Notes under the pieces: generated by a model | The model's input: the letters and a program-made list of their open reading frames with translations, nothing else | The model's database searches: none | Told to the model about the DNA's origin: nothing | Shown: positions 3,306 to 3,946 of the stretch, piece after piece | Numbering within the stretch: position 1 is the first letter of the stretch | Layout: each line of letters starts with the position of its first letter | Program-made: the position numbers and the translations under genes | From: Candidatus Tantalella remota | Lineage (GTDB): Bacteria; Omnitrophota; Gorgyraeia; Tantalellales; Tantalellaceae | Direction of reading: 5' to 3' | DNA: 64,000 bases | Assembly: GCA_030765685.1 (NCBI GenBank) | Contig: JAVCCB010000041.1 | Span: 75,549-139,548, forward strand

Positions 3306-3477
3306 TTTACGCTATATATTGCTGTTTTCCCTTCATACCCTACAACACTATGTATATTACGCCCTATATATAATTATTACACAAAGGGTATCATACGATT
3401 GTACCGTTGTCAAGTTAGAGGCATATTTAGTTGAGCAAAACTTGGGGCGGAAGGTAGATTCTAGATGCTCGATGCTC

Positions 3478-3603
3478 GTAAAACCCAAAATCCAAAGCTC
3501 AAAACCCAAAATAATCACAAAAATCCTAAATCCAAAAGCGCTATTTTGACATTTGTCATTTGGATTTCATTTGTCATTTGGATTTTGTCATTTGGATTTA
3601 ATA
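3478..3603. repeat. dispersed intergenic repeat family A, copy 1 (AAATCCAAA / TTTGTCATTTGGATTT arms)
   Basis: A-rich arm (cccaaaatccaaag...) followed by TTTTGACATTTGTCATTTGGATTTCATTTGTCATTTGGATTTTGTCATTTGGATTT; the same architecture recurs at 15024-15213 (inverted), 24434-24555 and 59175-59283. Confidence 0.6.
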
Positions 3604-3946
3604 TAACGGACTGTGGTCAGATCGGCGAGCAAAAACTAAATACTAAATACCAAATACTAAATACTGAACAGTGACCAGTCATCAGTCATCAGTGATCAGA
3701 TGCTAGATTCTGGATGCTGGATGCTCATAAAAGTGGATATCAGGGGATCTGGTTATCAGGGACTAGGAGATCCGGGCATCAGGATATCGGGGACGAAATC
3801 TCGTCTTACGTTGGAGGGTCACGTCTATCGAATCGGTTATCGTCAGAGGGTGGCGGTTCAGCCGTAACCGCAAACCGTTCAACGATTCCCAAGACGCAAC
3901 CGATCAACGAGATACGTGATACAAGATACGAGATACGAATAGCGGT

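Follow-up and report, generated by a model that had tools for sequence, protein, structure and literature searches.

Tandem arrays of heptanucleotides are, according to Mrazek et al. 2007 as reported in PMC4679880 and PMC4692102, the most abundant or over-represented class of long simple repeats in many prokaryotes, and the same reports credit that study with the proposals that polymerase slippage is their origin and that a polymerase-footprint effect underlies the 7-nt step. Heptamer arrays are described in Calothrix and Nostoc (as short tandemly repeated repetitive, STRR, sequences), Microcystis, Beggiatoaceae, Thiocystis and a few Bacteroidetes (PMC4679880) as well as in Xanthomonas and Nostoc (PMC4692102), and a regulatory role near start codons was suggested in Nostoc (bioRxiv 10.1101/2022.06.06.494920). 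They are favoured in many bacteria, yet the cause of the 7-nt step and their function are not established. The present analysis concerns heptanucleotide (heptad) arrays in the spacers of Candidatus Tantalella remota (Omnitrophota), in a 64-kb stretch of contig JAVCCB010000041.1 referred to throughout as the window. The original prediction, made from the sequence of this stretch, had regarded heptanucleotide repeats as established only for heterocystous cyanobacteria, which is contradicted by the occurrences in Microcystis, Beggiatoaceae, Xanthomonas and other bacteria in the two reports (PMC4679880, PMC4692102).

The gene content was correctly judged not to be cyanobacterial. The window carries a complete division and cell wall (dcw) cluster with ftsA, the mreBCD-pbp2-rodA genes and type IV pilus genes, and the closest genomes are metagenome-assembled genomes (MAGs) of Candidatus Omnitrophota. 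Among species-representative genomes the IleRS relatives were found in such MAGs, some of them labelled 'uncultured Planctomycetia', with identities of 91% for L001, 68-73% for L002-L006, and 50-55% for the next tier; Elusimicrobia come after these at approximately 45% (comparison loci are numbered with the prefix L). A full-text literature search returned nothing relevant on heptamer or intergenic tandem repeats in Omnitrophota, and heptad arrays in this group appear to be previously unreported in the literature that was searched. The case extends heptad repeats to a candidate phylum known here only from MAGs.

Period-7 arrays in the non-coding DNA

Tandem arrays were called across the window with Tandem Repeats Finder (TRF), and coding was separated from non-coding DNA by a gene map that was crude at first and then refined with Pfam and orthologues. 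TRF returned 82 rows, 44 of period 7 and 12 of period 14, equivalent to a period-7 density of 6.9 per 10 kb. Forty-one of the period-7 rows lie in the approximately 7.2 kb of non-coding DNA and three in the 56.8 kb of coding DNA, whereas 30 dinucleotide-preserving shuffles of the spacers gave a mean of 0.17 period-7 rows and a maximum of 1. Autocorrelation of the non-coding DNA, the check that the original prediction had proposed, gave z scores of 17.2, 11.8 and 6.2 for lags 7, 14 and 21, respectively, and coding DNA displayed period 3 only. The signal is spread over 15 of the 25 spacers rather than confined to one or two, and the lag-7 z is still 12.7 when families A and B, the two largest dispersed repeats, are removed. 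The arrays have a median of 4.3 copies (minimum 2, maximum 8.4) and account for 18% of the non-coding bases, or 13-80% within the array-bearing spacers. Head-to-tail 7-nt repeats above chance, with a strong non-coding bias, place them in the broad heptanucleotide class of long simple sequence repeats (LSSR) and STRR.

The period-7 arrays in the spacers are thus confirmed as real, though their extent had been overstated. All arrays quoted at the outset were located at or near their expected places (3631-3725, 3907-3938, 14685-14715, 17346-17426, 18693-18788, 25592-25625, 44933-44981, 49580-49650 and 61980-62013). Practically all spacers of at least 80 bp had been described as built in this way; the arrays are indeed widespread, but ten of the 25 spacers have none, including 1-382, 6208-6348, 6703-6861, 22860-23063, 41559-42013, 57917-58517, 59749-59850, 60193-60355 and 63053-63178. 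Similarly, units were said to differ between spacers, and 27 distinct units were counted after merging over rotations and both strands, 20 of them singletons in the window; several others recur, namely AAAAAGG six times, AAATACT and AAAATCC four times each, and AAATGAC and AATAGGG three times each. AGGAAAA, GGGAATN and GTGAACA, like AAATACT, are also recurring units of the window. A hexamer given as (GGTTAA)9 and as the one exception to period 7 is (AGGTTA)7.3 by TRF, and two more short period-6 arrays occur in spacers.

Heptad DNA at conserved gene junctions and among relatives

The window and the loci L002, L003, L005 and L006 are collinear, and their pairwise protein identities all lie at 67-72%. 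In heptad-free relatives with identical gene order, the junctions that the arrays fill in the window are closed, the genes overlapping or lying less than 10 nt apart, as seen from the following junction lengths (nt; negative values are overlaps):

lspA-lgt: window 262, L003 0, L006 -8
lgt-rluD: window 337, L003 -14, L006 -44
rluD-aroA: window 269, L003 -4, L006 1
pbp2-rodA: window 260, L003 -4, L006 -4
murG-murC: window 104, L003 -4, L006 -4

The aroA-mreB spacer, on the other hand, is long in every relative (101-242 nt) and has no heptads in the window; of the promoter-like sites on the gene strand, the best one (TTGACA-17-TACTAT, preceded by a TG) is located here. By this comparison, the heptad DNA is a lineage-specific addition within conserved operons and not ancestral regulatory sequence, because L003 and L006 keep the same gene pairs overlapping or nearly abutting.

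The density of period-7 arrays per 10 kb (TRF) is 7.0 in L002, 6.9 in the window and 5.8 in L001, 2.6-3.9 in several other Omnitrophota loci, and about 0 in L003, L006, L009, L014, L019 and L023; Elusimicrobia loci have 0-0.9, with 1.2 in one short contig. The lag-7 z of non-coding DNA, calculated across loci, is 19.4 for L002, 16.0 for the window, 10.8 for L007 and 7.7 for L090; seven of the remaining loci lie at 4-6 and about 90 between -2.8 and 3.4, and the syntenic heptad-free loci L003, L006 and L005 have values of -0.6, -0.4 and 0.6, respectively. Since the collinear loci are all 67-72% identical, heptad-rich and heptad-free lineages are interleaved at equal distance, and the lineage specificity that had been proposed is borne out in this form: some Omnitrophota lineages have the trait, and syntenic ones at the same distance lack it. 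The main value of the case lies in these relatives, against which heptad DNA is seen prying apart otherwise overlapping genes, and the contrast would allow heptad density to be compared with gene content throughout the phylum in looking for the cause of the preference for 7 nt. Period 7 was the commonest TRF class (96 rows, against 76 for period 9) in metagenome contigs with genes for RodA relatives, 0.93 Mb in all, in agreement with the published generalisation (PMC4679880).

The array-bearing spacers of the window, in which nearly all genes are on the - strand, are as follows (unit, copies, coordinates):

3306-3946, pilM / TPR-protein spacer, lag-7 z = 10.5, 36% in arrays: GATGCTC x2 (3464-3478), AAAACCC x4.6 (3480-3511), TTTGTCA / 14-mer TTTGTCATTTGGAT (3545-3599, a family A copy), AAATACT x5 (3631-3665), TGATCAG x5 (3665-3699), AGATGCT x4 (3698-3725), ACGAGAT x4.6 (3907-3938)
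14550-15224, GGDEF gene / radical-SAM gene spacer: TTGGGTC x4.4 (14685-14715) with a + strand G-quadruplex motif, CTGATGA-type (14951-14993), inverted family A copy (15025-15080), ATTTTGG x4.6 (15180-15211), CGTCATCCCCGC hairpin elements
16977-17429, radical-SAM gene / rodA spacer: TTTAGCG x2.9 (16981-17000), 4 nt before a start codon; CCCGGTA x4.1 (17346-17374); TTCCCAA x4.7 (17394-17426), 3 nt after the rodA stop
18528-18787, rodA / pbp2 junction, 260 nt, lag-7 z = 9.9: AGTATTT x4.4 (18545-18575), 17 nt upstream of the rodA ATG; GTTCAC-type run (about 18590-18630); GTACTCG x4.6 (18693-18724); TTTTTCC x4.3 (18759-18788), abutting the pbp2 stop
24357-24625, aroA / rluD junction, a family A copy: AAATCCA x4.4 (24434-24464), TTTGTCATTTGGAT-type (24500-24554)
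25544-25880, rluD / lgt junction, family B copy 1: AAAGGAA x4.9 (25592-25625), inverted TTTTCCT x4.1 (25841-25869)
26616-26877, lgt / lspA junction: TTAGTAT x3.9 (26618-26644), 2 nt before the lgt ATG; CTTTTTC x2.4 (26824-26840); CAGTTTA x2.9 (26852-26871); two CGTCATCCCCGC hairpin elements
30532-30581, junction of ileS and a gene of the purine-nucleoside-phosphorylase (PNP) family: one array, GTTTACAGTTCACC x1.9 (30551-30577), reading AGTGAAC AGTAAAC on the - strand
31742-32021, junction of yggU (DUF167 gene, 31520-31741, -) and yggT: GTATTTA x5.3 (31747-31783), conserved in position with L001; TTTTCCC x3.3 (31914-31936); CCCGGTA x3.3 (31962-31984); ATTCCCT x3.9 (31985-32011)
33160-33413, proC / giant open reading frame (ORF) spacer: TACTCAA x4.6 (33375-33406), TTGGGTG-type run (about 33185-33205)
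44841-44976, ddl / murB junction: ATTCCCT x2.9 (44933-44952), GTTCACA x4 (44954-44981), TTAAGA hexamer run (44859-44882) that is part of a long hairpin
47261-47379, murC / murG junction: perfect (AGGTTA)7.3 hexamer (47280-47323); TTATCCC x5.1 (47344-47379), entering the murG stop codon, with a - strand G3N4 G-quadruplex motif
49575-49659, ftsW / murD junction, 80% in arrays, RNA fold z = -4.55: ATTACAG x4.3 (49580-49609) and ATCTGAC x5.4 (49613-49650), imperfect inverted repeats of each other
58962-59310, spacer upstream of mraZ: GGGAATA x4.1 (59034-59062), inverted family A copy (59175-59280)
61980-62641, SNF-family transporter gene / RF-1-domain gene spacer: family B copy 2, GTTCACA x3.6 (62616-62640)

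From mraW to murD (49660-57916), its first half, the dcw cluster is tightly packed with no spacer, and heptad DNA occurs in its second half only at the murD-ftsW, murG-murC and murB-ddl junctions. GGTTAAG, kin to the AGGTTA hexamer, is present in the hairpin of the ddl-murB spacer (44859-44920) and in the PNP-ileS spacer of L001 (2150-2230). No Rfam families and no tRNAs were detected in the window.

In the annotation of MAGs, arrays of this kind create spurious ORFs and lengthen ORF calls, and short-read assemblies may break at them. Two examples, 17064-17342 and 31862-32104, are + strand ORFs that match no family and run through heptad or hairpin spacers; the former, with no Pfam match, is probably spurious. 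A third + strand ORF without a family match, 30549-31481, is the shadow of the real PNP-family gene at 30582-31439 (-). Between ftsA and proC lies a giant ORF of 2714 aa (33414-41558, -) whose domains are of the radical SAM, guanylate kinase and ARMT1-like damage-control phosphatase types. L002, L003 and L006, otherwise collinear, lack this ORF, and in them proC directly follows ftsA; its upstream spacer of 455 nt (41559-42013) is free of heptads. At 8096-9808 and 9816-11543, two full-length paralogues of the PilB-type ATPase stand in tandem; next come a 149-aa ORF with an MshEN N-terminal domain only (11553-12002) and a PilT-like ATPase (12036-13097). Adjoining a PilZ-domain gene, a PC4-like gene (transcriptional coactivator p15 fold) is present at 59851-60192 (-); the PC4-like fold is known to bind single-stranded DNA.

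Probable origin and spread of the arrays, and their possible role

The dispersed families that resemble miniature inverted-repeat transposable elements (MITEs) are built of heptads, as had been predicted: the arms of both A and B are heptad arrays, and both families are short non-coding elements with terminal inverted repeats. In family B (148 nt, 61982-62129) the element consists of an AAAGGAA-type x4.9 array, a core of approximately 85 nt and an inverted TTTTCCT-type x4.1 array; a second copy at 25592-25869 is 93% identical, has the same succession of degenerate units along the two inverted arms and carries a 130-nt insertion in its core. Family A, with AAATCCA-type and TGTCATTTGGATTT-type arms, is present in four copies and in both orientations, so that the 64 kb hold two copies of B and four of A. 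No target-site duplication was seen at the flanks of family B in an alignment read by eye, without a formal scan, and no transposase family was matched among the Pfam-scanned ORFs, which make up most of the gene map; on these two grounds a reading of the arrays as transposon footprints with 7-bp target duplication was set aside. Composite blocks recur as well: GTACTCG-ATTCCCT at 18705-18745 and 31964-32004 (90% match) and AAATACT at 3634-3668 and 18542-18576 (94% match).

Besides the heptads, a GC-rich hairpin family starting with CGTCATYCCSG (example CGTCATTCCCGCGAAAGCGGGGATGACG) was found in eleven instances (14758, 14920, 17072, 17223, 17285, 26656, 26777, 31482, 31509, 31795 and 31906), every one in heptad-bearing spacers. 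Compared with L001, one of these hairpins is an insertion in an AAATACT array. In appearance the family is similar to repetitive extragenic palindromic (REP) sequences. Further non-heptad dispersed repeats, containing CCGCCGTAGCCTTGGCGAAGGCGGAAG-type sequence and of 86-94% identity, are shared between spacers (14754-14821 and 17068-17137; 17160-17194 and 25772-25806).

Turnover of the arrays was followed in L001, whose genes have about 80-86% nucleotide identity with those of the window. The yggT-yggU junction is 71 nt in L001, with TGATCAG x5 and ATACGAA x5, and about 280 nt in the window, where different arrays and a hairpin element occupy it. Between yggU and PNP, L001 has an array of five AAATACT units; that of the window has about two and stands beside an inserted hairpin element; the Shine-Dalgarno motif after this array is conserved in both. 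No sharing of units was found among distant Omnitrophota loci. A change in copy number was detected between L153 and L155, metagenome contigs from different projects that are 99.7% identical over 4968 nt: their sole indel is of 14 nt, two units of a (CAGAAAG/CAGAAGG)n array (at about 1098 in L153 and about 8060 in L155). The two contigs come from a different, distant and also heptad-bearing lineage, because their GC content is about 0.66 and their RodA is only 45% identical to that of the window.

It seems probable, taking this evidence together, that the arrays are STRR-like heptanucleotide simple repeats made by slippage, partly spread on MITE-like elements and mostly neutral. They would arise and change through strand slippage during replication or repair, in 7-nt steps; since 7 is not divisible by 3, a step of this size in a gene would cause a frameshift and be purged, which would leave non-coding DNA as the only place where arrays are tolerated. 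Arrays may then be copied between spacers by recombination or by small non-autonomous elements. The net effect would be a lineage-specific expansion of the intercistronic junctions in the dcw, mreBCD-pbp2-rodA, ileS-lspA-lgt and proC-yggT-yggU operons, where the arrays are probably co-transcribed and mostly neutral, with loss of translational coupling and additional mRNA hairpins as possible side effects.

That chance, compositional bias or an assembly artefact lies behind the period-7 signal is extremely improbable: repeats may be collapsed or wrongly joined in short-read assembly, but nothing was found in favour of this reading, and 41 rows against 0.17 in shuffles, a lag-7 z of 17, the presence of the signal in independent assemblies from different projects (L002, L007, L090, L152 and L155) and the positional conservation of one array between the window and L001 all speak against it. 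A more serious competitor, though still an unlikely one, is that transposition is primary and slippage minor, the heptad DNA being copies or debris of a few non-autonomous elements with heptad arms. Such a process would fit the two copies of family B at 93% identity with their unit order preserved, the four copies of family A in both orientations, the recurring GTACTCG-ATTCCCT and AAATACT blocks, the repeated arrangement of modules downstream of stop codons (GGGAATN followed by GTACCGR and next by GATATCAGGG-type repeats) and the appearance of heptad DNA as insertions relative to L003 and L006. It is opposed by the lag-7 z of 12.7 that persists without families A and B, by the 20 of 27 units that are singletons, by the lack of a target-site duplication at the family B flanks as read by eye (no formal scan) and by the lack of a transposase match among the scanned ORFs (most of the gene map). 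Transposition alone accounts for families A and B and leaves unexplained the singleton units, the 7-periodicity of the arms and the two-unit indel between the near-identical contigs L153 and L155.

Several observations weigh against neutral slippage as well, and some of them are shared with a further rival, here considered improbable, in which the arrays are functional cis-elements: either a lattice on polycistronic mRNA or single-stranded DNA for a protein covering about 7 nt per monomer, with cold-shock and S1-type oligonucleotide-binding (OB)-fold proteins as candidate binders, or leaders that set downstream translation after coupling has been lost. Read on the - strand, an AAATACT-type array ends 2 nt before the lgt ATG, another 11 nt before that of yggU and a third 17 nt before that of rodA; alignment with relatives confirmed these starts. 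The array beside the yggU ATG is conserved in position in L001 at approximately 86% identity with five units in both species, an unchanged copy number that does not look hypermutable. The five occurrences of GTGAACA/GTAAACT have a single orientation on the gene strand, GGGAATN and AGGAAAA are mostly sense on it, and ten arrays start within 15 nt after a stop codon. On RNA folding, spacers fold better than their shuffles (z = -1.2 to -4.4), and some neighbouring arrays are imperfect inverted repeats of one another that give regular hairpins of 5-bp helices and 2-nt internal loops (49575-49659, z = -4.55). These orientation and folding patterns could reflect the oriented insertion of elements and would also be expected of a functional motif. 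Regulation by heptamer arrays adjacent to start codons has been proposed (PMC4679880; bioRxiv 10.1101/2022.06.06.494920), as has OB-fold binding for the TAACTGA repeats of Beggiatoaceae. A functional role is opposed by units that are not conserved between lineages, by equally distant relatives that lack the arrays and keep their genes overlapping, by a conserved promoter-bearing spacer that is array-free, by the small number of arrays (5 of 44) within 15 nt before a start codon and by a lack of Shine-Dalgarno sites that is not distinctive (the motif, loosely defined, is present in 21 of 49 genes). Two further points tell against slippage in the window itself. Among adjacent arrays with different units, the in-register rotation was the best in three of seven pairs in the window and three of 15 at other loci. 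The nearest metagenome RodA match is at 73% and exact look-ups of RodA and MreB were empty, so that, with no strain-level relative, active slippage in this lineage is presumed rather than directly seen.

Other candidate explanations were rejected along the way. Neighbouring arrays as in-register 7-nt derivatives of each other received no significant support from those pairs (3/7 and 3/15), and unstructured spacer RNA was discarded because the spacers out-fold their shuffles. Replacement of Shine-Dalgarno sites by arrays would not stand out, as the motif, even loosely defined, is present in no more than 21 of 49 genes. A-tract bends add up at a phasing of approximately 10.5 bp and not at 7 bp; planar DNA curvature, which had been suggested as a selected property of the spacers, is therefore unlikely.

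Also improbable is the idea of a heritable factor, open to gain or loss and present in some Omnitrophota genera, by which tandem duplications of 7 nt are written or stabilised in their non-coding DNA. The factor could be a variant of the replisome or of a repair system, or a protein that binds 7 nt per monomer, and sister genera without it would keep compact, overlapping operons in the same gene order. If this is true, comparisons within the Omnitrophota would offer a natural way to trace why bacteria prefer 7-nt repeats.

Comparison with described repeat systems

MITEs, REP sequences and bacterial interspersed mosaic elements (BIMEs) resemble families A and B and the CGTCATCCCCGC hairpins in being small, dispersed, non-coding elements with inverted arms between co-directional genes. 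Unlike them, the families of the window have heptad arrays as arms, are visible in only 2-4 copies each in 64 kb, show no target-site duplication by eye (no formal scan) and are accompanied by no transposase match among the scanned ORFs.

The GGGAATC repeats of Xanthomonas and GGGGAYT repeats of Nostoc are G-quadruplex heptamers (PMC4692102), with which GGGAATN, GGGATAA and TTGGGTC share G3 tracts spaced 7 nt apart. Five G3+N1-7 quadruplex motifs were found in the 64-kb window, all in heptad-bearing spacers:

14687, + strand
47378, - strand
33315, - strand
31971, - strand
17355, - strand

One of them, the (GGGATAA)n motif at 47344-47379, overlaps the murG stop codon. As a sequence motif only, a minority of the arrays have the four or more G3 tracts with short loops in one array that mark the G-quadruplex-forming heptamer repeats of Rehm et al. 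2015. The window departs from this system in that most of its units are not G-rich and the published units do not occur in tandem.

The TAACTGA repeats of marine Beggiatoaceae, some Cyanobacteria and Bacteroidetes (PMC4679880) are likewise intergenic heptamer arrays of 2-6 copies, some of them gene-oriented and located a few nt upstream of start codons, and spacers of Microcystis and some Bacteroidetes also mix several heptamers (PMC4679880). In the window, by contrast, TAACTGA occurs as four singletons and never in tandem, no single unit dominates, and the 5 of 44 arrays within 15 nt of a start codon fall short of the majority expected of the TAACTGA system.

With the STRR sequences of Calothrix, Nostoc and Anabaena the arrays have in common few-copy heptanucleotide tandems, many dispersed non-coding arrays and several units per genome. 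The units of STRR1-3 are CCCCAGT, TTGGTCA and CAACAGT. None of nine published units, which include STRR1-3, TAACTGA, GGGAATC, GGGGAYT, TTTTGAA and GACCAAT, forms tandem dimers in the window, so that the arrays are not STRR in the strict sense; they differ also in their Omnitrophota host, in at least 27 units within 64 kb and in the many arrays inside conserved operons.

With the LSSR of Mrazek, Guo and Shah 2007, as far as that study is reported in PMC4679880 and PMC4692102, the arrays agree in a favoured unit of 7 nt, an intergenic bias, a phylogenetically scattered occurrence, polymerase slippage as the proposed origin and, perhaps, variability between close relatives; the lineages named in the two reports do not include Omnitrophota.

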